This document shows positions 8,260 through 29,828 of a stretch of 64,000 nt of DNA, one piece after another (positions within the stretch are counted from its first letter, which is position 1; each line of letters opens with the position of its first letter). Position numbers and translations under genes: made by a program. The DNA comes from a virus (taxonomy: Duplodnaviria; Heunggongvirae; Uroviricota; Caudoviricetes). The stretch covers positions 253,336 through 317,335 of the IMG/VR virus record IMGVR_UViG_3300009709_000001. One strand, written 5' to 3'. The notes below the pieces were generated by a model. It was not told the origin of the DNA. It saw only the letters and a program-made list of their open reading frames with translations, and made no database searches.

Positions 8260-9200
8260 GAATACACATACGAGGCAAAACCCTACTTCAACCTCGCGAC
8301 ACACAACCATAAAGCTCAATATGCCCGCGAGGCCATGTGAAACCCTGTGTTAAGCTGTATAGATCAGCAGTAAGGAAAACACGTACAAGCCCGAGGTTGA
8401 AACTCTGGCCCGCCCTCGCGATAGAAAGCTTCCCCGTAACTGTTTCATGCGAGGCCCGAAATCCGCATTCGAAACTCTAGTTACATCTTGTTACAATTGT
8501 TACACATTGAATCACAGAACCTTTACTATAAGAAAAAGAACCTAAGCTGAACCTTTGTGTAGAAAAATTGTTAGGGCGTTTTCTGCCTCGTATGCATAGC
8601 GTATAGAAAAACTACGTAGTGTAGATTCAATGCGAGGCTCTATGTAGTGTAGAAAAACACTGTGATCCACACCAGTTGTTTTTCAATGTAGTGCAGAATC
8701 AACACAGTGCGAGGCCGAGGTATTCACTGTGGGGAGAGGGTTTCTACCTTCGAGTAACCGTAAAGGCATAGACCGGTTCGAAAGGTTCGGCCTAGGGTTT
8801 CTTTAGAGTAAAGGAAGGTGATAGCCTAGGGTTTCTCTCGAAACATAAGCCTATCTTTGCAGCAGGGTATCGAATCGATTGCCTACACGGTTATCGACAG
8901 AGTTTCACGACGACATCGAGACTTCGACACCAAGACTGAGACTTTGGCCGAAATCAACGCCAAGACGGGCATCGACCGAGACTTTGGCCTCTACGCACAG
9001 AAATCGAGACTTTTCGACACAGACGCGCTCCTAGACACGCATCAACGCACCATCACTGCGATCTACGTGGGAATTCTGTGTGAAATTCCTATCTTCACCT
9101 TGAAAATCCTCTACACAGCCTAAGGTGGGTTTCCAATTTGAAATCTCAATTCTTCGAGAGAGATTCATGCAAAAAACCCGATTCTAGTTTCGTCCTGGAT
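8260..9200. repeat. ~950-bp non-coding region with several short repeat families
   Basis: CGAGG..GAAAC(C/T)CT at ~60-bp period, GTAGTGTAGA x3, TAGGGTTTC x2, GAGACTT x4, triple GTTACA box at 8480-8504. Confidence 0.75.
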
Positions 9201-9208
9201 TTCGGTTG

Positions 9209-9466
9209 TTAAACGGACGAATTCAAAGCTTTACAGCATCTGGGTTTATCATGTTTCGACCATGTCAAGAGATTTGCATAGAACAGCGGAATCCCACCTT
9301 TTACTATAATAACAGTTTTTTCTTGTAAAGGTAAATCATACCCGTTATCAATGAAGAACTTATCTGGAATTATGTGATACAGTATCACATAATCATATTC
9401 TGTCATAGTGTATTCAACTATGTCGTATTTCAGCTTTAGGAAGAGCTTATCTTCTGTTGAGATCAT
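9209..9466 (-). CDS. LKY-array paralog 25
   Basis: MISTEDKLFLKLKY. Confidence 0.85.
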   Translation of the reverse strand: MISTEDKLFLKLKYDIVEYTMTEYDYVILYHIIPDKFFIDNGYDLPLQEKTVIIVKGGIPLFYANLLTWSKHDKPRCCKALNSSV

Positions 9467-9695
9467 ATTGGTGAAGATTGGTGAAGAAATCTGCGAGATT
9501 AGGTATGTAGTTATAATCTATCTGAATAAGAATATCAGACACACCGAATATACTCGTGTAATTATGCATAGTGAAAAACTCTTCGGGTATTGAATGACCG
9601 ATGTTGAGTAGCCACAAATTTAAGTAGTCGTCTACACTTGTTTCTACTATACTGTATTTCAGCTTTAGGTAAACTTTATCTTCAGTGCTGATCAT
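9447..9695 (-). CDS. LKY-array paralog 24
   Basis: MISTEDKVYLKLKY. Confidence 0.85.
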   Translation of the reverse strand: MISTEDKVYLKLKYSIVETSVDDYLNLWLLNIGHSIPEEFFTMHNYTSIFGVSDILIQIDYNYIPNLADFFTNLHQYDLNRR

Positions 9696-9907
9696 AGAGT
9701 CCTTTCATACATAACCAATATCCTGTACAGTTCGCATTCGAATTCTTCTACAGTGCGGAAGTTAGGAGAACACACTGCTTGCCATATTTCCATATAGACA
9801 TTTTCTGGAACTAGGTGACGAAATATGGCAAGATCTGTTCTAATAGAACATCCGGACCAGGCGGGATACTTCAGTTTGACGTGCAGGAGTTCTTCAGCGC
9901 TGATCAT
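9692..9907 (-). CDS. LKY-array paralog 23
   Basis: MISAEELLHVKLKY. Confidence 0.85.
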   Translation of the reverse strand: MISAEELLHVKLKYPAWSGCSIRTDLAIFRHLVPENVYMEIWQAVCSPNFRTVEEFECELYRILVMYERTL

Positions 9908-10035
9908 ATTCTTGTAGGGCTGCGTAGAGTTGGTTTAGATTCTATAGCTGCTGTGAAGATGACTTGGTAGTCATTCACTATAGGTTTACTGAGTTTATAC
10001 TTCAGTGTTATCAACAGTTTGTCTTCGCTGTTCAT
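9894..10035 (-). pseudogene. short, frameshifted LKY-array paralog 22
   Basis: MNSEDKLLITLKY...; C-terminal LYAALQEYD lies in another frame. Confidence 0.6.
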
Positions 10036-10279
10036 ATTCGAGAATGTCTGTTAGTAGTTCATTGTACTCGTGTTCGTGATACCATTCATTTCTTGATAGA
10101 CTTACACCTATATCGGGATTGGCCGGGTCTTGGTAGTCTACCACTGTTATGTTGGTATAACCTTTAGCCTTTAAGAAGAAGAATAATCCGGCATCGTACT
10201 TAATGAAGGCGGTCCGGGTCCTACTGAAGATTTCTGCATTGTACTTCAGTGTTATGAACAGCTTATCTTCTGGATTCAT
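9995..10279 (-). CDS. LKY-array paralog 21
   Basis: MNPEDKLFITLKY. Confidence 0.85.
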   Translation of the reverse strand: MNPEDKLFITLKYNAEIFSRTRTAFIKYDAGLFFFLKAKGYTNITVVDYQDPANPDIGVSLSRNEWYHEHEYNELLTDILEYEQRRQTVDNTEV

Positions 10280-10508
10280 AGTCGGCTAGGTCAGCCATCA
10301 ATATGCACATGAACTCGAGTGTATCGTAGTAGTCATAAAACCTATTCCTAGTTTTTAGTTGGCCGTGAAGTGTGTATGCATAATCGATTAGGAACTCATC
10401 GGGTAACGACATCATGGACTTTGGATAACGATCGAACATGCCGAGTTGGAATCTCTTTTCGGGTAGGTTGTATTTTAACCTAATGAATAGTTCATCTTCG
10501 TTGTTCAT
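10263..10508 (-). CDS. LKY-array paralog 20
   Basis: MNNEDELFIRLKY. Confidence 0.85.
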   Translation of the reverse strand: MNNEDELFIRLKYNLPEKRFQLGMFDRYPKSMMSLPDEFLIDYAYTLHGQLKTRNRFYDYYDTLEFMCILMADLADYESRR

Positions 10509-10761
10509 GATTTGGCTCCAGTTCCATTAGTATATTCGATAATGCTTCAAGTGCTTCTTCGGGTTTATCGCTGTAGATTTGAAGTAGTTGAATTCCGGGT
10601 TCGCCTGTGCTGAAGGTGTATACTCTGAAGTTCTCGTGTGTGTAGTGACCGATATATTCGGCTTGTTCTTCGGTTACATAACACACAACTTTTCGTAAGA
10701 GGTTAGTTTTTATACCGATGCGGTACTTCAGCGTTAAGTAGAGCTTGTCTTCTGCATCCAT
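10492..10761 (-). CDS. LKY-array paralog 19
   Basis: MDAEDKLYLTLKY. Confidence 0.85.
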   Translation of the reverse strand: MDAEDKLYLTLKYRIGIKTNLLRKVVCYVTEEQAEYIGHYTHENFRVYTFSTGEPGIQLLQIYSDKPEEALEALSNILMELEPNHEQRR

Positions 10762-10982
10762 TCTAGTAAGTCTTTCTTTAGGTGGTACATGAAGTCTAAT
10801 GAGTGGTAGGCATGCCCGGGTCGACTGTTTAATCTAACAAAGGTACTGGTATCGATATATCCGTATTCGAGTAGGAACTCGATAGGTATTTCTCTTGAGT
10901 ACTCAACCCACTGCACATAGTCGGCAAAGTGTACCGGAAGTCTATACTTCAGCTGTAGGTAGGTTTCGTCTTGACTGTTCAT
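10734..10982 (-). CDS. LKY-array paralog 18
   Basis: MNSQDETYLQLKY. Confidence 0.85.
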   Translation of the reverse strand: MNSQDETYLQLKYRLPVHFADYVQWVEYSREIPIEFLLEYGYIDTSTFVRLNSRPGHAYHSLDFMYHLKKDLLEWMQKTSST

Positions 10983-11199
10983 ATCGCATTAGTTGGCTGA
11001 TAAAGTATTCGGTACTAATCTCTTTGTACTTCAGGTTTAACAACACATCGTTGAACATGAAATTATACTCGGCTAGAAAGTCAGGTGGCAGAGATTCGGC
11101 ATAGAGTTTTCTTGCTCTAACTTCTTGTGGTGTAGTCGGGTATGGAGGTGGCATTCCATACTTCAACACTACCATCGATTTGAGTTCAGCATCATCCAT
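10942..11199 (-). CDS. LKY-array paralog 17
   Basis: MDDAELKSMVVLKYG. Confidence 0.85.
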   Translation of the reverse strand: MDDAELKSMVVLKYGMPPPYPTTPQEVRARKLYAESLPPDFLAEYNFMFNDVLLNLKYKEISTEYFISQLMRYEQSRRNLPTAEV

Positions 11200-11420
11200 G
11201 TTGCTAGGTGTTCGATTAGTTCTTCTGGTGTTAGATAATGATGTTCGTAGTCTTCATCCATCATTGAATATCCGAAGTGTGATGTGCTTAGTCTTAGATC
11301 GTGTCGGAATGCTATTGGCAGGTTGGTTAGATATTCGATACGTTGTCTACGTTCTGGATTGTATTGATCTGGTGGCCATCCGTATTTCAACACTGCAAGG
11401 GTTTTGAATTCTTCTATCAT
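11169..11420 (-). CDS. LKY-array paralog 16
   Basis: MIEEFKTLAVLKYG. Confidence 0.85.
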   Translation of the reverse strand: MIEEFKTLAVLKYGWPPDQYNPERRQRIEYLTNLPIAFRHDLRLSTSHFGYSMMDEDYEHHYLTPEELIEHLATWMMLNSNRW

Positions 11421-11662
11421 TGGTTGACACTGTATTGTGGATTGGCTAGAAGAAACTCTACAAGCTCGTTTTCGAGTTCCGGCCAGGAAGATCTAATTCG
11501 ATATAACTTCACCAATGGAGATTGAGTTTCGCTAGTGTACCTGTATTCTCTGTAGAAGTTAAAACGCCAAGGCTGACGTCCGATCATTTTTAGGAACTCC
11601 CATGAATCGCCGCCAGAGATAAGCTGTAGGCAAGTTCTTAGTTCGGATTCTCGTGTGTCCAT
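11417..11662 (-). CDS. LKY-array paralog 15 (divergent)
   Basis: MDTRESELRTCLQL. Confidence 0.75.
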   Translation of the reverse strand: MDTRESELRTCLQLISGGDSWEFLKMIGRQPWRFNFYREYRYTSETQSPLVKLYRIRSSWPELENELVEFLLANPQYSVNQ

Positions 11663-11898
11663 TTTGTTAACTCATCGATTAGGCGATTGATAAACTCGGG
11701 TGTATCAAACCAAATACCACGAACAATCAATGTTAAGTTACCGTTTGTACCGCAATATCCGTGATCGGTTAAGAACTCCCGCGGTATGCTTTGATACAGT
11801 TTCTGATGCATTGTGTATCCATAAATCCACTCCGGAAACTTTACTCCGTACTTCAGTTCAAGGAAGACTTTGTCAGCTTCAAGTTGTTCGCTGTTCAT
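11638..11898 (-). CDS. LKY-array paralog 14
   Basis: EADKVFLELKYG. Confidence 0.85.
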   Translation of the reverse strand: MNSEQLEADKVFLELKYGVKFPEWIYGYTMHQKLYQSIPREFLTDHGYCGTNGNLTLIVRGIWFDTPEFINRLIDELTKWTHENPN

Positions 11899-12145
11899 AT
11901 TCTAAGAGGTGATAGCACAATTTATCAAATCGGATGCTTCCGTCAACGTAGACACCAATATCAATTTCAGGTCCGATTCCGATAACGGATTGAACAAGCA
12001 TTACAAGCATTCCGTGATCAACTAACCATTCGTACAGTGAATCCCTGTCGGCAGTATTGAGGTAAACCCATTTGTGATTAGGGAACCTTTCTATCCTATA
12101 CTTGAGTGTAAGATATAGTCGGTTCATTTCGGATATATTGCTCAT
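11879..12145 (-). CDS. LKY-array paralog 13
   Basis: EMNRLYLTLKY. Confidence 0.85.
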   Translation of the reverse strand: MSNISEMNRLYLTLKYRIERFPNHKWVYLNTADRDSLYEWLVDHGMLVMLVQSVIGIGPEIDIGVYVDGSIRFDKLCYHLLEYEQRTT

Positions 12146-12383
12146 AGTATAGAAACTGTTTGAAGAATCTTAGCTTTGAATTATTGTCAGGACAAACCAT
12201 CAATTCGATCTTGTTGTATGTGCCGAATTTGAATGTGCGAAAGTCTTCGGGAAATATCTGAACATCAATAACACTCCCATCAAGTATCTCTTTACCGAAG
12301 CGTAGAGTAAGATAGGTGCATTCTTCGTCAGTAACGTCTTCGACGTTAATTTCTACTTTGATCGTATTCAAGGAGTTGGTCAT
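12096..12383 (-). CDS. LKY-array paralog 12
   Basis: DEECTYLTLRFG. Confidence 0.8.
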   Translation of the reverse strand: MTNSLNTIKVEINVEDVTDEECTYLTLRFGKEILDGSVIDVQIFPEDFRTFKFGTYNKIELMVCPDNNSKLRFFKQFLYYEQYIRNEPTISYTQV

Positions 12384-12582
12384 AGAAATGGTCTACTTCA
12401 TTGTCATGAATGATGTACATGGGATGGCACCAAGTATTCGGATAGTTATAGTGGTCAAAGAATTCGAATGGGATTAGGTGCTTGGACAGGAAATGACTGG
12501 TTTCGCGGGAATGCGTTTCTGTATCTTCGAAGTTGATTTTATACTTCAACCGCAAATACATTTTATCTTCACTCTTCATCAT
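12346..12582 (-). CDS. LKY-array paralog 11
   Basis: MMKSEDKMYLRLKY. Confidence 0.85.
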   Translation of the reverse strand: MMKSEDKMYLRLKYKINFEDTETHSRETSHFLSKHLIPFEFFDHYNYPNTWCHPMYIIHDNEVDHFYDQLLEYDQSRN

Positions 12583-12805
12583 ATGTCAGCAATCTGTGTA
12601 TCAAGTCTAATCTTGGACCTTCGGTGAAGAACCACATTACCTCTTCAAAGTCGTAATATCGATCAAAGAATTGTTTCGGAAGTTCTTTGCGCCAAATACC
12701 AGGGGCCTTTCGGAAGTCACGTATACCGTACTTCAACTTAATGAAGATCATATCTTCGTCAGTCGATAGTCGGTACTTGCCCGTTTGTGGATTGATCAAA
12801 CTCAT
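12569..12805 (-). CDS. LKY-array paralog 10
   Basis: DEDMIFIKLKYG. Confidence 0.85.
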   Translation of the reverse strand: MSLINPQTGKYRLSTDEDMIFIKLKYGIRDFRKAPGIWRKELPKQFFDRYYDFEEVMWFFTEGPRLDLIHRLLTYDEE

Positions 12806-12980
12806 AAAGTCTTTGATACAGGTATTCTAGGAACTCTTTGTAATCATCGAAGCGATCGGAAGCGAGTGCCCTGAACATTTCGTTATAGATTTTTGGAGGG
12901 CAGAGCCTTCGGAAATTATCGCCCTTGAGTGGGTTCCCGTATTTTATTTCTAAGTATAATCGGATTTCACTCGTTATCAT
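12759..12980 (-). CDS. LKY-array paralog 9
   Basis: MITSEIRLYLEIKYG. Confidence 0.85.
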   Translation of the reverse strand: MITSEIRLYLEIKYGNPLKGDNFRRLCPPKIYNEMFRALASDRFDDYKEFLEYLYQRLYEFDQSTNGQVPTID

Positions 12981-13284
12981 CGGTGTGTTCTATTGTTAGG
13001 CCTGGATATCCACGTTCTAGATAATAGATGCGAAGCAGACGATCGAGTACCATAAGGCCGGATTGATAATCGATTGCGTATTCTTGACAATACTTGAATG
13101 TCCGCATCATTATCTCTCGTCCACCTTCTGTAGTAGTGTTCGAAGATGCATCCCTGAATACAGTGAGTTCAATGAGTTCGTCCGGCAATGAATCCAGATA
13201 ACCCATAAGGTTTTTCTGCGGATCAGGATGGATCAGCTTGATCATCAACTCTAGTTCTTTGTCTTCTTCTAAGTCGTTGTTCAT
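12967..13284 (-). CDS. LKY-array paralog 8
   Basis: MNNDLEEDKELELMIKLIHPDP; resembles 14003. Confidence 0.75.
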   Translation of the reverse strand: MNNDLEEDKELELMIKLIHPDPQKNLMGYLDSLPDELIELTVFRDASSNTTTEGGREIMMRTFKYCQEYAIDYQSGLMVLDRLLRIYYLERGYPGLTIEHTDDNE

Positions 13285-13522
13285 AATCGAAAATTGCCTT
13301 ATATACGGACTTTGTGGTTCCCCAAGACGGCAGTAACCATCGATAAGGGCCCGGTGCCCACATCGAAGGAGTTTTAAGAAGTTCTCTGAAGCCACACGCC
13401 TCTGGATAGCCTTGTGGGAGATTGGCGAGGTAAACATACCTATCGTGTTCTCCTCTGTTGTAGGAGTAATGTGGTACGGGACCCAGTCTCAGTGCTATCT
13501 CTAATCTGTCTTCTTTTGTCAT
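13223..13522 (-). CDS. LKY-array paralog 7
   Basis: MTKEDRLEIALRLG. Confidence 0.8.
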   Translation of the reverse strand: MTKEDRLEIALRLGPVPHYSYNRGEHDRYVYLANLPQGYPEACGFRELLKTPSMWAPGPYRWLLPSWGTTKSVYKAIFDYEQRLRRRQRTRVDDQADPS

Positions 13523-13754
13523 ATTCGATTAACATCTCGTAGATATATTCTGAATCATAGAATGCACCTGTTGCCCATGTTCGAAATGCAGTTCCCTTGT
13601 CTTCGTTGAGTAAGCCAGATTCGAGCAGAAACTCGGTAGGTAGTCCATACAATGCCTTCAGGCGTTGTCCACTTTTTATTTCCGGCACATAATATTTCAA
13701 CTGGATCGCTGTTATCTCTTCAGCTGTCGGACTTATTTTCTTTTCTTCGGTCAT
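13440..13754 (-). CDS. LKY-array paralog 6
   Basis: AEEITAIQLKY. Confidence 0.8.
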   Translation of the reverse strand: MTEEKKISPTAEEITAIQLKYYVPEIKSGQRLKALYGLPTEFLLESGLLNEDKGTAFRTWATGAFYDSEYIYEMLIEYDKRRQIRDSTETGSRTTLLLQQRRTR

Positions 13755-13998
13755 ACGCAAGTAGGTTTTCCATGAATTCGGGAAAGAACTTTTCAATATT
13801 CTTTTGCACGTAATCGTCCACCTCTGGTACGATGTCATAGTATCCGGGTGTCACTGAAGGTCGTATGTATCCGTGATAGATGAGGAAACCTAATGGCAAG
13901 TGTTCACACTCTATACGGACGCGCGGAGACCGATTGTTGTCAACAGTCAGGAAGACATTGTACTTCAGCTTCAGGTATAGTGTATCTTCGGGGCTCAT
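13720..13998 (-). CDS. LKY-array paralog 5
   Basis: MSPEDTLYLKLKY. Confidence 0.85.
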   Translation of the reverse strand: MSPEDTLYLKLKYNVFLTVDNNRSPRVRIECEHLPLGFLIYHGYIRPSVTPGYYDIVPEVDDYVQKNIEKFFPEFMENLLAYDRRKENKSDS

Positions 13999-14002
13999 AA
14001 CC

Positions 14003-14263
14003 TTATTCGTACTTCATGAATTCTAGATTGATTATGTGGTTGAGTGTGATTTGGATGAATGGTTGTCGTACCTGTTCAAACATATCGTATTGGATCACAA
14101 TCGATCTTACGGTAGTTTCGTAATCATCCCTTAATATCGGACTATGTATCAAATCTAGTGCCGATTGTGGAAGACTACGGATATATCCTTCGAAGTCAAC
14201 AAATGGATCCGGATGACTTAACCGTATGAATAGTTCTATTTCTCTTCTTTGCTCTGGGGTCAC
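14003..14263 (-). CDS. LKY-array paralog 4
   Basis: EIELFIRLSHPDP. Confidence 0.8.
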   Translation of the reverse strand: MTPEQRREIELFIRLSHPDPFVDFEGYIRSLPQSALDLIHSPILRDDYETTVRSIVIQYDMFEQVRQPFIQITLNHIINLEFMKYE

Positions 14264-14514
14264 AATTCACAACCATTTTCGAAATTGATTAGTTGCAGGA
14301 GCATCCATTCGTAATCTTCCTGAAGAAGCGCCCAAGCTTTGCTAACCTTATGGTGTAGACGAAATTCCAGAGGTAGGCGATTAAAGAATTCAACTACTGG
14401 AACCCACATCATTTCATCGGGCAACGGACCGTATCGAAGTTCTAGATAGGTGCGATCTTCATCCCTCAATTCTTTGATCAAGAAGGTCTCGGTGCATCTC
14501 GACTTCGTATTCAT
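14260..14514 (-). CDS. LKY-array paralog 3
   Basis: DEDRTYLELRYG. Confidence 0.85.
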   Translation of the reverse strand: MNTKSRCTETFLIKELRDEDRTYLELRYGPLPDEMMWVPVVEFFNRLPLEFRLHHKVSKAWALLQEDYEWMLLQLINFENGCEL

Positions 14515-14764
14515 TCAAGTCCTTAATCAATCGTTCGATGAATTCTTCTTCGTCCACGTTCATACCGTGAATGTGATGCCCTTTGGTCAGCACTACCGGT
14601 TTCTCTAGATAGGTTCTTACTTCGGATGCATATCCGTACAACAAACGAAACTCTTCCGGTAACTTCTTAGCATACTCTAGCCAAGTTTCCGGAACGAAAG
14701 TCTTTGGCAGTTGCCCGTATCTTAGTTCAACATACAGGCGGTCTTTGGTATCAGCTCGGAACAT
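14459..14764 (-). CDS. LKY-array paralog 2
   Basis: DTKDRLYVELRYG. Confidence 0.85.
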   Translation of the reverse strand: MFRADTKDRLYVELRYGQLPKTFVPETWLEYAKKLPEEFRLLYGYASEVRTYLEKPVVLTKGHHIHGMNVDEEEFIERLIKDLNEYEVEMHRDLLDQRIEG

Positions 14765-15011
14765 ATACTGTCAACTCCTTGGCCATTCTTCTTGCGAAGT
14801 GAAGATTTGTGAATCGTAACCCACGATTGATATACTGGAGGTTAGTCTTACCGTCCGGTGCCTCCACCCAGTATCGAAATTTGATGTTAAAGTCACGCGG
14901 TAAGGACATCGTGAATTTATGATATTCAGTCGCATTGTCAAACCGCTCTGGCATCTCGACACCATATCGAAGTTTTATTATTACTTTTTCTTCGCCATTT
15001 ATCGGCTTCAT
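14751..15011 (-). CDS. LKY-array paralog 1
   Basis: EEKVIIKLRYG. Confidence 0.85.
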   Translation of the reverse strand: MKPINGEEKVIIKLRYGVEMPERFDNATEYHKFTMSLPRDFNIKFRYWVEAPDGKTNLQYINRGLRFTNLHFARRMAKELTVYVPS

Positions 15012-15107
15012 AATATCATTTTACGCTTATTTTAAGAAAGGTACAAATGGACACTTTCTAACGACCAATCAACGTCCAATTGCACGCATGCAGTGATTGG
15101 TGAAAAA

Positions 15108-15362
15108 TTATTCATCCTTCTTCACATAGCGTTCACGTTGCATGAAGTCCGTATCAGCTATCCATATGCCGATTAGATACGCAACAATAATCATATTCAT
15201 GATTGGTATCAACGAGGCAATCACGACTAGCATCATGGACGACATCACAGAACTCAACTTGTAGAAACCATAGTGTTTCGCAGTCAGATATTCTGTCCAT
15301 GCGCCGACACCAATAATGATTAGTGAACTGATGATATAAAGTAACGTACCGAGTGCTATCAT
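15108..15362 (-). CDS. small membrane protein, PxxN family
   Basis: 2 TM, LIPIMN. Confidence 0.8.
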   Translation of the reverse strand: MIALGTLLYIISSLIIIGVGAWTEYLTAKHYGFYKLSSVMSSMMLVVIASLIPIMNMIIVAYLIGIWIADTDFMQRERYVKKDE

Positions 15363-15363
15363 A

Positions 15364-15543
15364 TTATTCTTTTAAGAGTTGACGGACGACCCAAATGGCC
15401 GATACCGTATTAACGAGTGGTGTATAAATGAGAAAAGTGCTCTCGATATCGTCCAGAAAGATTTCGTCCCGCCGTAGGAGGATAACGAACCCTATGAACG
15501 AAACAATCGCACTGAGGATATAGATTGCAATGAGAATAGTCAT
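15364..15543 (-). CDS. small membrane protein, PxxN family (59 aa, not in track)
   Basis: MTILIAIYILSAI...YTPLVNT. Confidence 0.75.
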   Translation of the reverse strand: MTILIAIYILSAIVSFIGFVILLRRDEIFLDDIESTFLIYTPLVNTVSAIWVVRQLLKE

Positions 15544-15791
15544 TTTCTCATTGCAACCTTTCGCATAGATGGACTATTCAACCAATCCTCAACCATTGTC
15601 CAGATGCCGAGAGTTGCAGCAATAGCATTCACAAGAGGAATACTTGCCGAAAAGATACCACCGACCGCATAGAGTACGACTTCTTTTCTGGTTAGATAAC
15701 CAGACTTATTCAGTTCTTTCTTTGCGAAATAAGCCGCATTCACGGCAGTAATGGCAGCCGAAATCCAATAGATTAACCAAAACCAGAACAT
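15540..15791 (-). CDS. small membrane protein, PxxN family
   Basis: IYWISA...SIPLVN. Confidence 0.8.
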   Translation of the reverse strand: MFWFWLIYWISAAITAVNAAYFAKKELNKSGYLTRKEVVLYAVGGIFSASIPLVNAIAATLGIWTMVEDWLNSPSMRKVAMRK

Positions 15792-16057
15792 TATTCGTCC
15801 TCCTTAGGTTTCTTAACGAAGAACTTCTTATTCCACAGATTGGCATCTTCCATGATTGCATGACCGATACCGAAGATGAATACCAGAGTCGCAAGCGTAT
15901 TGATTATCGGCACAAATGCAATTATTGGAATACCGATTACGGAGACACAAATATCACTAAGTGTGAGACATCCTTGATCATCCCATTGTGCCCAAAGCAT
16001 CAATCCACAACAGGCAAGCGCAATGATTGCGCTCAAGATATAAATGGCCAGAAACAT
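15791..16057 (-). CDS. small membrane protein, PxxN family
   Basis: IYILSA...FVPIIN. Confidence 0.8.
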   Translation of the reverse strand: MFLAIYILSAIIALACCGLMLWAQWDDQGCLTLSDICVSVIGIPIIAFVPIINTLATLVFIFGIGHAIMEDANLWNKKFFVKKPKEDE

Positions 16058-16074
16058 TTCGTCCTTTCGTTCGT

Positions 16075-16335
16075 TTAACTTATTCCGTATCGTCCAAAAT
16101 ATTCGGACAGATCGTCCATCAATTCCCAGTCAGTTACTTGATCAATTTTTCTTGACCAGTCCCATTTATTATCTTTCTGGACGTATTCGCGATACTTGTA
16201 TCTAATTAGAAAGTCGTCCGGAAATTGGGTAAGGTAGGCCGTTCTCGCGTACCAGCCTTCCCATCCAGTCAACTTACCCATTGGTGGATGACCGTACTTT
16301 AGGACAATGATTGTTTCAATTTCCGGCACGGACAT
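16075..16335 (-). CDS. LKY-family protein
   Basis: MSVPEIETIIVLKYG. Confidence 0.8.
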   Translation of the reverse strand: MSVPEIETIIVLKYGHPPMGKLTGWEGWYARTAYLTQFPDDFLIRYKYREYVQKDNKWDWSRKIDQVTDWELMDDLSEYFGRYGIS

Positions 16336-16521
16336 ATTTGTATAATTCGTCTTCGACAAGCATCTTGGTAGTTGCCTTTATCCAGAATCCATCGGTGTAG
16401 TTGAACATCTCTTTGAATTTGTCCGGCAGGCCTAGAATAAATGCAGCACGCTCGACCCTGTCAGCGGGCACTGGCCCAAACGTAATTTTACCAGCGTCTG
16501 GATTTCTTTTATGGATGACAT
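16316..16521 (-). pseudogene. LKY-family ORF with apparent 1-nt homopolymer deletion (~16478)
   Basis: 206 nt; adding one T gives MSSIKEIQTLVKLRFGPVP... Confidence 0.55.
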
Positions 16522-16711
16522 ATAGGAAAAGGGCTTTTGATAGCCCTTAGTTTAACACAGCTGGATAGAAACTCTCAACTTGAGCGCACAGCCCAAGCAC
16601 GCAAACAACCTAGAAATCAAGCACTAAATTGCACGGAAAAACGCAAATGCAGCACTGGAAAAGTGCTGCACAGGGTCTGGGCTTGCGTGCTTTTGCACGC
16701 GCTGCAATGTT

Positions 16712-16879
16712 TCAGAGCTTAACCAGATGCAGGAGTTGTCCGGCAACGTTCCAGCAGGCCAAGCACATCAGATGAATGATGATAACACGGCCCGCATAGG
16801 TGACTTTGCCCCACCTGAAGAAAGCGCCGACAACCATTGCTGTGATGAACAATGTGAAGACTACATGGAGCGTGAACAT
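16712..16879 (-). CDS. small membrane protein
   Basis: Hydrophobic; promoter upstream. Confidence 0.6.
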   Translation of the reverse strand: MFTLHVVFTLFITAMVVGAFFRWGKVTYAGRVIIIHLMCLACWNVAGQLLHLVKL

Positions 16880-16954
16880 TTCAATCATCCTCAAAATTGC
16901 GATGGACAAATAGTAACAGGAGCCGAAGCCCCTGTCAACCACGTTGCGAAGCGT

Positions 16955-17548
16955 TTAGTGCTTCGTGCCGTCGCCACCAAAGGCGCGCAGATCGAAGTTG
17001 CCGTCGCCAGGCTTCACGTCGGCGGTGTTGTGTTCGACACCAGGCCCGGGAGGGAGGCCGTCGATCTCGGCCGGCAAGTTGTCGAGGTTGCCCAGGACCT
17101 TCACCTGCACGTGGTCGGGGATACCGAGGGCCTGCCGGAGTGCCGCTTCGATGCCGGCCGCGGGCTTCGGCGCGTAAGGGCCAGTCTTCATCATACGGTG
17201 CACGGCGTCGTCGTACTGTTCCTTGGTGCCGCCGGGGATGTTGCGTTCCAGGGACTTGCGGATGCTGGCCGCCACCATGGCTTCCATCTCCTCGCGCGGC
17301 GGCGGGTTGTCGCTTTCCATCAGGTCGTTGATGCGGACCATTTCGCGGGTGGATTCCTGCATGTGCGCGGGCAGCAGATGGCAGTAGGTCTTGCCGATGT
17401 AGTACATTGACGGCAGTTCACGGAACTGGGCCGCCATCATGTAGGCCTCCGCCAGTGCCGCCGGCCCGTGTTCGGCCAGGTCGTCGATGAGCATCTTGGA
17501 CACGGTGTCCATCATCTCGCTGAGTTTCGGTCGACGTTGCGTTTCCAT
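16955..17548 (-). CDS. hypothetical protein (GC-rich)
   Basis: GGAGG RBS; promoter TTGACA-N17-CATAAT. Confidence 0.85.
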   Translation of the reverse strand: METQRRPKLSEMMDTVSKMLIDDLAEHGPAALAEAYMMAAQFRELPSMYYIGKTYCHLLPAHMQESTREMVRINDLMESDNPPPREEMEAMVAASIRKSLERNIPGGTKEQYDDAVHRMMKTGPYAPKPAAGIEAALRQALGIPDHVQVKVLGNLDNLPAEIDGLPPGPGVEHNTADVKPGDGNFDLRAFGGDGTKH

Positions 17549-28392: not shown

Positions 28393-28614
28393 TTAGAATC
28401 CATTCTCGCGATGATATTTAATCAGCTTCTTCAACATCGCATCGTCAATTATCGAATTATATTCGGATTCTGTAAGGCTACCATCCCTTAACTGTCCATA
28501 TAGCATATAGACTAGGACTTTATATGCTGTCCGAAGAACAGGCGAAGGAAATTTCTTTTCATCGAGCGGGAGGTATTTCAACCTCACGACAACTTCTAAT
28601 TCTTCATCATTCAT
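28393..28614 (-). CDS. LKY-family protein
   Basis: MNDEELEVVVRLKYLPL. Confidence 0.8.
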   Translation of the reverse strand: MNDEELEVVVRLKYLPLDEKKFPSPVLRTAYKVLVYMLYGQLRDGSLTESEYNSIIDDAMLKKLIKYHRENGF

Positions 28615-28859
28615 GGTGGTATCGCAATGTTGAGATGATATTGCGCCATAGCATCGATAACAGCTCGGGATCTCATCGCATAAACTTCATCTCTTGTAAG
28701 CTTCACGCTTCCGCCGGAATCAAGACTTTCATTATAAAGGATTCTCATTCTTTTATTATAGATTTCTCTAGCACCGGCAGGAAGCCAGCTAACATCTCCA
28801 TCATTTAACGGAAGATATTTCAGAGTTAGGATTAGCCTAAGCTGACCCTCATCCATCAT
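28611..28859 (-). CDS. LKY-family protein
   Basis: DEGQLRLILTLKYLPL. Confidence 0.8.
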   Translation of the reverse strand: MMDEGQLRLILTLKYLPLNDGDVSWLPAGAREIYNKRMRILYNESLDSGGSVKLTRDEVYAMRSRAVIDAMAQYHLNIAIPP

Positions 28860-29071
28860 TGGCGACGTTTCTTCCAATCGTAACCTTCCGGGAGTACATC
28901 CGACACACCACGTTTCCCAACGGAGTCGCCGAATACAGTGCTAATCACGACATGGTTCATGCCGGCATTACGCAAATTGTTGGCCAGTGTCAGTGCTGGA
29001 CCTAATTCAGTTTCGCCCAGGAATTGCACCTGGGGCATTTCGTTTTCTATCCAAAATATTGCTATGTTCAT
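28856..29071 (-). CDS. hypothetical protein
   Basis: Clean ORF ending YDWKKRR. Confidence 0.75.
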   Translation of the reverse strand: MNIAIFWIENEMPQVQFLGETELGPALTLANNLRNAGMNHVVISTVFGDSVGKRGVSDVLPEGYDWKKRRQ

Positions 29072-29095
29072 CTGTGCATTTTAGCACAGTAGGAA

Positions 29096-29353
29096 CTATT
29101 CGTCAAGCAGATCAGCGTGGTAGCAATAGAAGGCGGCCTCCAATGTCCGATATGCATTATCTCGATTAGCCGGCTGCTTTAGCATGATAGCGATATACAA
29201 TCGCTTCGCACTCATGCTCTTCGTTGTAGGTGTGAGTATATGTGCGGTGACATTGATCACTTCATCGGGTAACAAGTTCACGAACTCCAGTTTACCTTCC
29301 ATGAAGAATGGATACTTCAGTCTATAGAATATTTCAGTTTCGTTGTCCATCAT
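29096..29353 (-). CDS. LKY-family protein
   Basis: MMDNETEIFYRLKYP. Confidence 0.8.
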   Translation of the reverse strand: MMDNETEIFYRLKYPFFMEGKLEFVNLLPDEVINVTAHILTPTTKSMSAKRLYIAIMLKQPANRDNAYRTLEAAFYCYHADLLDE

Positions 29354-29828
29354 AATGGTAGAATAGGAATCGCATCAGTTTTATTTCCAGATCTCTACCA
29401 TAACTAGCATAGATATGTTCCAAGAATGAAACGGTAAAGATGTTGCCATGCATGGCAAATGATGCGGGATAAACATTGCCTACTCGGAGCTTTACCATTT
29501 CGGGCAAAGAATCGACATAATCTTGATCGAAACGAATAGGCTGAAATTTGAGTATGAGAAGGCTTCGAAGCTGTTTGGCTTCATCATCTCTCATAAATTG
29601 CTTGTTCTGGTAGTATTGCCGGAGATTGGCACGAAGAACTTCTACCACACTGCCCGGCATTGGTCGAGGGTTAGCATGAAGGACAAACTCGCTAATGAAA
29701 TCTGTTCTATCCTCAAAGCCCGGATAATAGGTGTGTAGAAACTCATACGGATATGTTTTCCAGCATTCCTCACTCAGGTCAACCTTGCCGTGCTTCAATC
29801 GAATCATTGTATCGAATTCGTCGCTCAT
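29334..29828 (-). CDS. LKY-family protein with two fused units
   Basis: DTMIRLKHG and RSLLILKFQP. Confidence 0.75.
   Translation of the reverse strand: MSDEFDTMIRLKHGKVDLSEECWKTYPYEFLHTYYPGFEDRTDFISEFVLHANPRPMPGSVVEVLRANLRQYYQNKQFMRDDEAKQLRSLLILKFQPIRFDQDYVDSLPEMVKLRVGNVYPASFAMHGNIFTVSFLEHIYASYGRDLEIKLMRFLFYHYDGQRN

Follow-up and report, generated by a model that had tools for sequence, protein, structure and literature searches.

How do neighbouring copies of a tandemly repeated gene come to share the nucleotides in which one copy ends and the next begins? The question is raised by a Caudoviricetes phage (IMG/VR record IMGVR_UViG_3300009709_000001), from which we analysed a stretch of 64,000 nt (positions 253,336 to 317,335 of the record; hereafter the window) that is part of one 385,394-bp contig. 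The window contains an array of overlapping paralogs, and what is specific to this array is that a conserved residue of the repeated protein, a tyrosine at the end of its C-terminal helix, supplies the start of the next gene at about 20 successive boundaries. Specific also are the absence of Shine-Dalgarno (SD) sequences at these starts, the long and neutral overlaps, and the conservation of the arrangement across at least three phage lineages.

The array and its junctions

The array lies in an island of 42% G+C within flanks of 55% G+C (Table 1). Its proteins have in common an N-terminal motif, M-x-x-E-D-K-L-Y-L-x-L-K-Y-G, a central motif, L-P-x-x-F, and a C-terminal helix that ends in L-x-E-Y-[ED]. 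The mutual identity of the paralogs is about 21%, with adjacent copies being slightly closer to each other (22.7% vs 20.5%, p 0.015), and the array therefore consists of old tandem duplicates. The protein family is undescribed: scans of 8 members against Pfam and PHROGs gave no match below E 0.04, and a blastn search with the array gave no match in phage and plasmid collections. An AlphaFold2 model built from 73 sequences is confident (pLDDT 89.4) and places the conserved Tyr inside a long C-terminal helix; fold searches against the PDB and the ESM Atlas gave nothing convincing (best Foldseek E-value 0.65, VIA-align Z 4.1, ESM Atlas TM 0.46).

Starts in the array were assigned from the family alignment. 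We consider them trustworthy because the ATG is located at a fixed distance before EDKLYLxLKY and is, in most array genes, the only in-frame start codon upstream of that motif; the homologues from other samples start likewise (n=29). These same two observations argue against the suspicion that the overlaps are an annotation artefact, with the true starts further downstream, or that programmed frameshifting joins the units. In favour of such an explanation, Palleja et al. found no genuine co-directional overlap >60 nt among those examined in annotated genomes (PMC2478687), one copy of the family is frameshifted (16319-16546), and a possible in-frame two-unit open reading frame (ORF) is present at 29337-29828. 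The family has no recurrent slippery motif, and no fused relatives of at least 185 aa were recovered in the search, although this last point is weak evidence. Overall, we regard an artefact or recoding as very improbable.

At 16 of the 24 junctions, the first base of the downstream ATG is also the middle base of an upstream codon (NAT-G). Of these, 12 are TAT-GA, encoding Tyr-Glu or Tyr-Asp, and TAT-GT, AAT-GA, GAT-GA and CAT-GA occur once each. Three further starts are of the type xxA-TGG, in which the upstream codon encodes Trp, and four junctions are 4-nt overlaps of the ATGA or GTGA type. The single remaining junction has a gap of 4 nt, with an in-frame TAT-GAG directly past the upstream stop. 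The original prediction, made from the sequence alone, had given counts of 17, 3, 3 and 1 for these classes, so that the pattern stands while the exact tally (16, 3, 4 and 1) differs at one junction. Its worked example, the start at 10279, is correct to the letter, and the upstream stop at this junction falls within the conserved Asp-Lys codons of the next gene. We also found the same junction type where it had been reported outside of the array, at 16335 and 29353.

The overlaps in the array range from 4 to 83 nt and are 14-83 nt long at 19 of the 24 junctions. As a comparison, we used 78 pairs of adjacent same-strand non-family genes called in this phage and two relatives. Overlaps of at least 11 nt were observed at 19/24 array junctions vs 1/78 of the comparison pairs (Fisher p 4e-15), and the junctions are thus beyond chance and peculiar to this family. 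Phase 1 predominates over the other phase by 16 to 7 in the array and by 11 to 0 in one of the relatives, L003. Nucleotide conservation around the starts amounts to a T at -1 and an A at +4, and no nucleotide motif is kept around the starts beyond these two positions.

Conservation of the junctions in related phages

A profile search of 1.84 billion representatives recovered 46 proteins, 17 of which were from this phage and 29 from other samples. Three diverged arrays were readable as DNA (L003/L004, L005/L006 and L002), and the contigs carrying P0023 and P0028 have overlapping arrays in their gene tables. A search of viral and metagenome contigs with the family alignment identified no related loci. 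Another candidate relative, L001, was rejected as uninformative since it is 99.995% identical and represents the same phage.

L003/L004 and L005/L006 share the gene order of this phage, in which family genes are followed by small membrane proteins and then by the array. Overlaps of at least 11 nt are present at 10/11 family junctions in L003 and at 3/4 in L005, and NAT-G starts at 11/11 and 3/4, respectively. The TAT-GA form is found at 8/12 of the L003 array junctions J9-J20, of which 11 are counted as family-family, and at 2/4 of the L005 family junctions. Among the family junctions of L003 and L005 that overlap, a single one is not in phase 1. Since the paralogs are only about 21% identical, retention of the junction does not reflect recent inheritance, and its persistence at this level of divergence and in both relatives supports the earlier suggestion that the dual-coded junction is part of the repeat unit.

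The family also contains junctions of other types. In the L002 sub-family, Glu-Tyr is followed by 3-5 codons rich in Lys and Arg, and the next start makes a 4- or 8-nt overlap; the 8-nt state within the family is Tyr-Glu-stop, TATGAATGA. At L003:11410-11431 and L002:60-80 the start is located 4-5 codons past the Tyr, and an Arg-Ser pair (AGG AGY) spells the SD sequence AGGAG. Thus, one family shows both solutions, with and without an SD.

The conserved tyrosine as a protein residue

Of the 58 family genes for which DNA was available and which were aligned to the profile, 51 align at the Tyr column, and 49 of these have an aromatic residue there. The Tyr codons that host a start number 20 and are all TAT, whereas the 18 Tyr codons without a hosted start are divided equally between TAC and TAT (9 each), in line with the background ratio. 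TAC, the codon in nine of these genes, cannot give an ATG. Two such codons inside the array act as natural controls (Table 1); at 14509-14507 the TAC precludes an ATG from the conserved Tyr. A solitary family copy between tRNA genes likewise reads TAC-GAA. Trp or Phe substitutes for Tyr at the same alignment column, and since the Trp copies place the ATG as A-TGG in the other phase, the start follows the residue rather than the reverse.

The residue after the Tyr gives a more mixed picture. It is Glu or Asp after 19/20 start-hosting Tyr codons vs 9/18 of the non-hosting ones, where Lys or Arg accounts for 4/18; basic residues at this position are common even without an overlap, and the pattern L-x-E-Y-[ED/KR] is kept in representatives from other metagenomes. 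As judged from these alignments, the Tyr, and partly the acidic residue that follows it, is a protein feature. The start codon makes a contribution of its own in the form of the near-obligatory Glu/Asp and of the choice of TAT, which is used for 13/15 of the conserved terminal Tyr codons vs 49% elsewhere in the array (p 0.003).

The same prediction had held that the Tyr-Glu motif may be selected for initiation and not for the protein, and it could be argued more broadly that Tyr-Glu/Asp is mainly an initiation signal and that the overlap was selected to enforce coupling along the array. The TAT bias, the excess of Glu/Asp after start-hosting Tyr codons and the missing SD sequences described below are all points in its favour. 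Against it, the Tyr is kept in the 18 genes in which it hosts no start, both where it is TAC and the start lies elsewhere and in the solitary copy, as well as in the L002 sub-family, and Trp or Phe may stand in the same column. Together with the stop placement and initiation data presented in the following sections, this leads us to consider selection mainly for initiation as unlikely.

Overlap tails and stop placement

The tails of the upstream proteins are out-of-frame readings of the next N-terminus, as had been inferred earlier. The upstream stop often falls in the GAT-AAR or GAT-GAA of the conserved Asp-Lys or Asp-Glu, which yields proteins ending in ...YExRR, although stops land in varied downstream codons of which these are several. 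Past Tyr-Glu/Asp the tail is variable in sequence, unlike the Tyr of the upstream protein and the N-terminal motif of the downstream one, which are both conserved.

The overlap averages 27.4 nt at 38 junctions, and a neutral model based on 3000 redraws of the synonymous codons of the downstream genes predicts 27.3 nt (sd 3.8). No selection for short overlaps was found by this test, and because the observed overlap equals the neutral expectation, stop placement is unconstrained, which is not what would be anticipated if the overlap enforced coupling. The C-terminal tails look like passive extensions of the 3' ends, and long co-directional overlaps are known to arise through the loss of a stop (PMC2478687). 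The excess of phase-1 overlaps is in keeping with the compositional model put forward by Sabath et al. (PMC2542354). A result that may speak for a role in initiation is that in 27/32 long overlaps the ATG closest to the upstream stop is in the frame of the downstream gene, and in 23 of these it is the annotated start itself.

Translation initiation signals

The array starts have a mean SD duplex energy of -2.1 kcal/mol, similar to the -2.2 kcal/mol of random ATGs, whereas the mean for 29 neighbouring non-family genes is -6.3 kcal/mol (p 6e-6 vs the array). The difference recurs in L003, with -1.75 kcal/mol for the family and -6.35 kcal/mol for the neighbours. Since the four membrane-protein genes of the same island have SD sequences, their absence is a property of the family. 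The start regions are A-rich and less folded than expected, with -3.9 vs -6.1 kcal/mol, a value reached by 0/5000 random sets.

Upstream of the first gene of the array (14975-15011, minus strand), a TAAAAT hexamer ends 6 nt before the ATG and is preceded by a poor match to a -35 element; a leaderless transcript for this gene is conceivable. A scan of 8600-17000 for promoter and terminator consensus sequences scored no better than shuffled sequence and was left aside.

A probable superposition of two motifs at the repeat boundaries

The explanation that we find best, and probable on the present evidence, is that two protein-level motifs are superimposed at the repeat boundaries and kept there by selection. 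At each boundary the end of the C-terminal helix (L-x-E-Tyr-Glu/Asp) would be laid over the N-terminus of the next protein (Met-Asn/Thr/Ile-x-Glu-Asp-Lys), such that the TAT of the Tyr together with the G of the following GAx codon would form the ATG of the next gene, and the A of GAx would become the first base of its second codon. Old tandem duplications would have multiplied the unit together with its boundary, and the boundary would since have persisted because the Tyr, the N-terminal motif and the requirement for a start codon were all under selection. About a third of the junctions would have drifted to the Trp version, to ATGA or to a NAT-G a few codons away. Past the Tyr, translation of the upstream protein would simply run out of frame into the next gene and end at the first stop, often the TAA in GAT-AAR.

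As for translation, the starts may function without an SD in A-rich, little-structured RNA, and ribosomes that are translating the upstream gene or terminating on it would probably assist, in that they hold the RNA open or undergo a short backward reinitiation of the kind considered for the RNA phages fr and MS2 (see below). The missing SD sequences fit a dependence on upstream ribosomes, and translational coupling along the array is plausible; for ribosome-assisted initiation of the array genes, we put the chances at slightly short of even. Three observations weigh against this part of the explanation. First, eight SD-less starts are not preceded by an overlapping family gene (Table 1), and since SD-less starts thus occur outside overlaps as well, coupling is not needed to explain the missing SD. 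Second, 12/24 overlaps are at least 25 nt long, and one E. coli study saw coupling disappear at roughly 25 nt (reviewed in PMC12548453). Third, other ATGs inside the overlaps are not significantly depleted once the starts are removed from the background. The stronger claim of the original prediction, that the junctions enforce translational coupling, is not upheld in view of the first two of these and the neutral placement of the stops, and the same three results also count against Tyr-Glu/Asp being mainly an initiation signal.

Alternatively, free 30S subunits may initiate independently, without an SD, on the A-rich and unstructured starts, in which case the overlap would be a neutral outcome of stop loss with no role in expression. 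The low structure and high A content of the starts, the SD-less non-overlapped family genes, the neutral overlap lengths and the known origin of long co-directional overlaps by stop loss (PMC2478687) are all in line with this. However, ribosomes elongating across the overlap would occlude the start, and the overlap has been kept in at least three diverged phages despite 4- and 8-nt alternatives within the family. We therefore treat independent initiation as a tentative alternative, with a chance of somewhat more than one in three.

Superimposed motifs, with or without help from upstream ribosomes, could also be taken one step further. The boundary, with the ATG in the upstream Tyr codon and A-rich N-terminal codons after it, could be an SD-independent start module that is used efficiently only by ribosomes that finish the previous unit and reinitiate backwards over 14-83 nt. 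We consider this doubtful, but if true each unit would be a plug-in cassette, all 25 proteins would be produced at a constant ratio from a single point of entry, and a mechanism of the fr/MS2 lysis type would operate at the scale of an operon in a double-stranded DNA (dsDNA) phage.

Other family copies and neighbouring genes

The array is not the only location of the family (Table 1). Upstream of it, the copy at 16319-16546 (minus strand) is interrupted by a 1-nt frameshift that separates ...KLRLG from PVPADR...; its orthologue L003:7613-7852 is intact, and the same sequence is found in a second assembly, L001. In the more distant cluster, the second half of the ORF at 29337-29828 has the motif order of the family (LKF ... 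LP-E ... FYHYD) and scores weakly against the family profile, and the earlier view that this ORF is a fusion of two units is plausible with that reservation. The solitary copy (genome 171967-172266; L007:1401-1767) has its ATG 6 nt past the point where the upstream tRNA ends (3' end), while its stop falls in the first 7 nt of the next tRNA; because it abuts both, tRNA processing would leave a nearly leaderless message without a stop.

Three or four paralogous small two-helix membrane proteins, whose genes have strong SDs, are always located between the family genes and the array (15108-16057; L003:8585-9498; L005:8948-9678), and this synteny hints at a functional link between the membrane-protein cluster and the array. 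An SprT-like gene is found upstream of the family region in this phage (L001:5943-6812) and in both diverged relatives, where a RadC-like gene is present as well (L003:4995-7283, L005:5655-7412), indicating conserved synteny across the group.

Table 1. Positions of the array, its junctions and further copies of the family. Positions refer to the window unless another locus is named; - in the strand column denotes the minus strand.
Feature	Position	Strand	Details
Tandem array	9209..15011	-	25 head-to-tail diverged paralogs, 24 junctions; 43-105 aa, typically about 80 aa
Downstream starts, first half	14764, 14514, 14263, 13998, 13754, 13522, 13284, 12980, 12805, 12582, 12383, 12145	-	
Downstream starts, second half	11898, 11662, 11420, 11199, 10982, 10761, 10508, 10279, 10035, 9907, 9695, 9466	-	
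Typical junction	10263..10281	-	17-nt overlap; upstream TAT GAA TCC AGA AGA TAA (YESRR, stop), downstream ATG AAT CCA GAA GAT AAG (MNPEDK)
Longest overlap	13440..13523	-	83 nt; start 13522 in upstream TAT-GAC; upstream gene continues 26 codons
Trp-type junction	11638..11663	-	AAA-TGG; conserved aromatic residue is Trp, ATG one base earlier in the other phase; likewise at 11199 and 10761
ATGA junction	9904..9907	-	4-nt overlap; likewise at 9695 and 11420; GTGA at 14263
Natural control	14507..14515	-	Conserved Tyr is TAC (14509-14507); next start 14514 two codons earlier in AAT-GAA
Second natural control	12366-12364	-	Tyr is TAC; next start 12383 in a different TAT-GAC
Unit 22	9904-10035	-	Shortened to 43 aa, without C-terminal helix; ATGA overlap with unit 23
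SD-less first-of-run or solitary starts, this phage	15011 (first gene of array), 16521, 29828, solitary copy		Scored -0.1 to -3.3 kcal/mol
SD-less first-of-run starts, relatives	L003:7613, L003:9498, L005:7910, L005:9751		Three with no SD-like run in upstream sequence; L003:9498 in neither SD set
Four small membrane-protein genes	15108..16057	-	Good SDs; between the two further family genes and the array; same gene order in L003 and L005
Two further family genes upstream of array	16075..16546	-	First 16521-16319; second 16335-16075, with its start in a TAT-GTC pair of the first
Second, distant cluster of family-like genes	28396..29828	-	Start 29353 in TAT-GAT; ATGA junction at 28614
Possible in-frame two-unit fusion	29337-29828	-	164-aa ORF; first half matches family
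Solitary family copy	genome 171967-172185		Between two tRNA-Ile(GAT) genes; outside the window

Comparison with known systems and significance

Overlapping co-directional genes, NAT-G starts and translational coupling are all textbook phenomena. The classes of overlap described for coupled stop and start codons are -4 (ATGA), -1 (TAATG) and -8 (NTGNNTGA) (Huber et al. 2019, PMC6728339; 2023, PMC10666635; reviewed in PMC12548453). The array resembles such pairs in that co-directional neighbours overlap and the upstream coding sequence bears the translation signal of the downstream gene, and four of its junctions are plain ATGA or GTGA while 8-nt forms occur in the relatives. It differs from them in that stop and start in coupled pairs are at most 8 nt apart, whereas 19/24 array overlaps are 14-83 nt and only 4/24 are 4 nt. 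Furthermore, an SD within the upstream coding region is common though not obligatory in the coupled pairs; the array has none, its start lies in a conserved Tyr codon, and the position of the stop is unconstrained.

A closer parallel in terms of distance is the overlap between the coat and lysis genes of two RNA phages, fr (-38 nt) and MS2 (-50 nt), where reinitiation or RNA unfolding follows termination (PMC12548453). As in these phages, an array start precedes the stop of the gene before it by tens of nucleotides. Unlike in the array, where the design recurs about 20 times along the operon of a dsDNA phage and such a dependence would be hypothetical, the fr/MS2 case concerns one regulated gene pair in an RNA phage for which the dependence on upstream ribosomes is experimental. 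Finally, composition has been put forward to explain long same-strand phase-1 overlaps (Sabath, Graur and Landan 2008, PMC2542354), and the array shares with these overlaps a start that spans two upstream codons (NAT-G), two open frames and extension by stop loss. The difference is that the array forms its start from a codon pair that constitutes a motif conserved within a tandemly repeated family, and the same overlap is therefore found at each unit and is conserved between phages.

The array provides a natural example of a tandem family that has fixed a two-frame boundary, in which a residue and the next start codon constrain each other, and the TAC, Trp and shifted-start variants are built-in natural controls. 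It also calls for caution in annotation, since long co-directional overlaps, most often written off as errors, can be genuine and particular to one family. Should translation indeed pass along the array one unit after another, the array would lend itself well to studies of long-range reinitiation in bacteria. Beyond the junctions, the array reveals an undescribed family of small proteins without SD sequences and with a confident but unmatched fold, which has expanded to 25 copies in giant phages.

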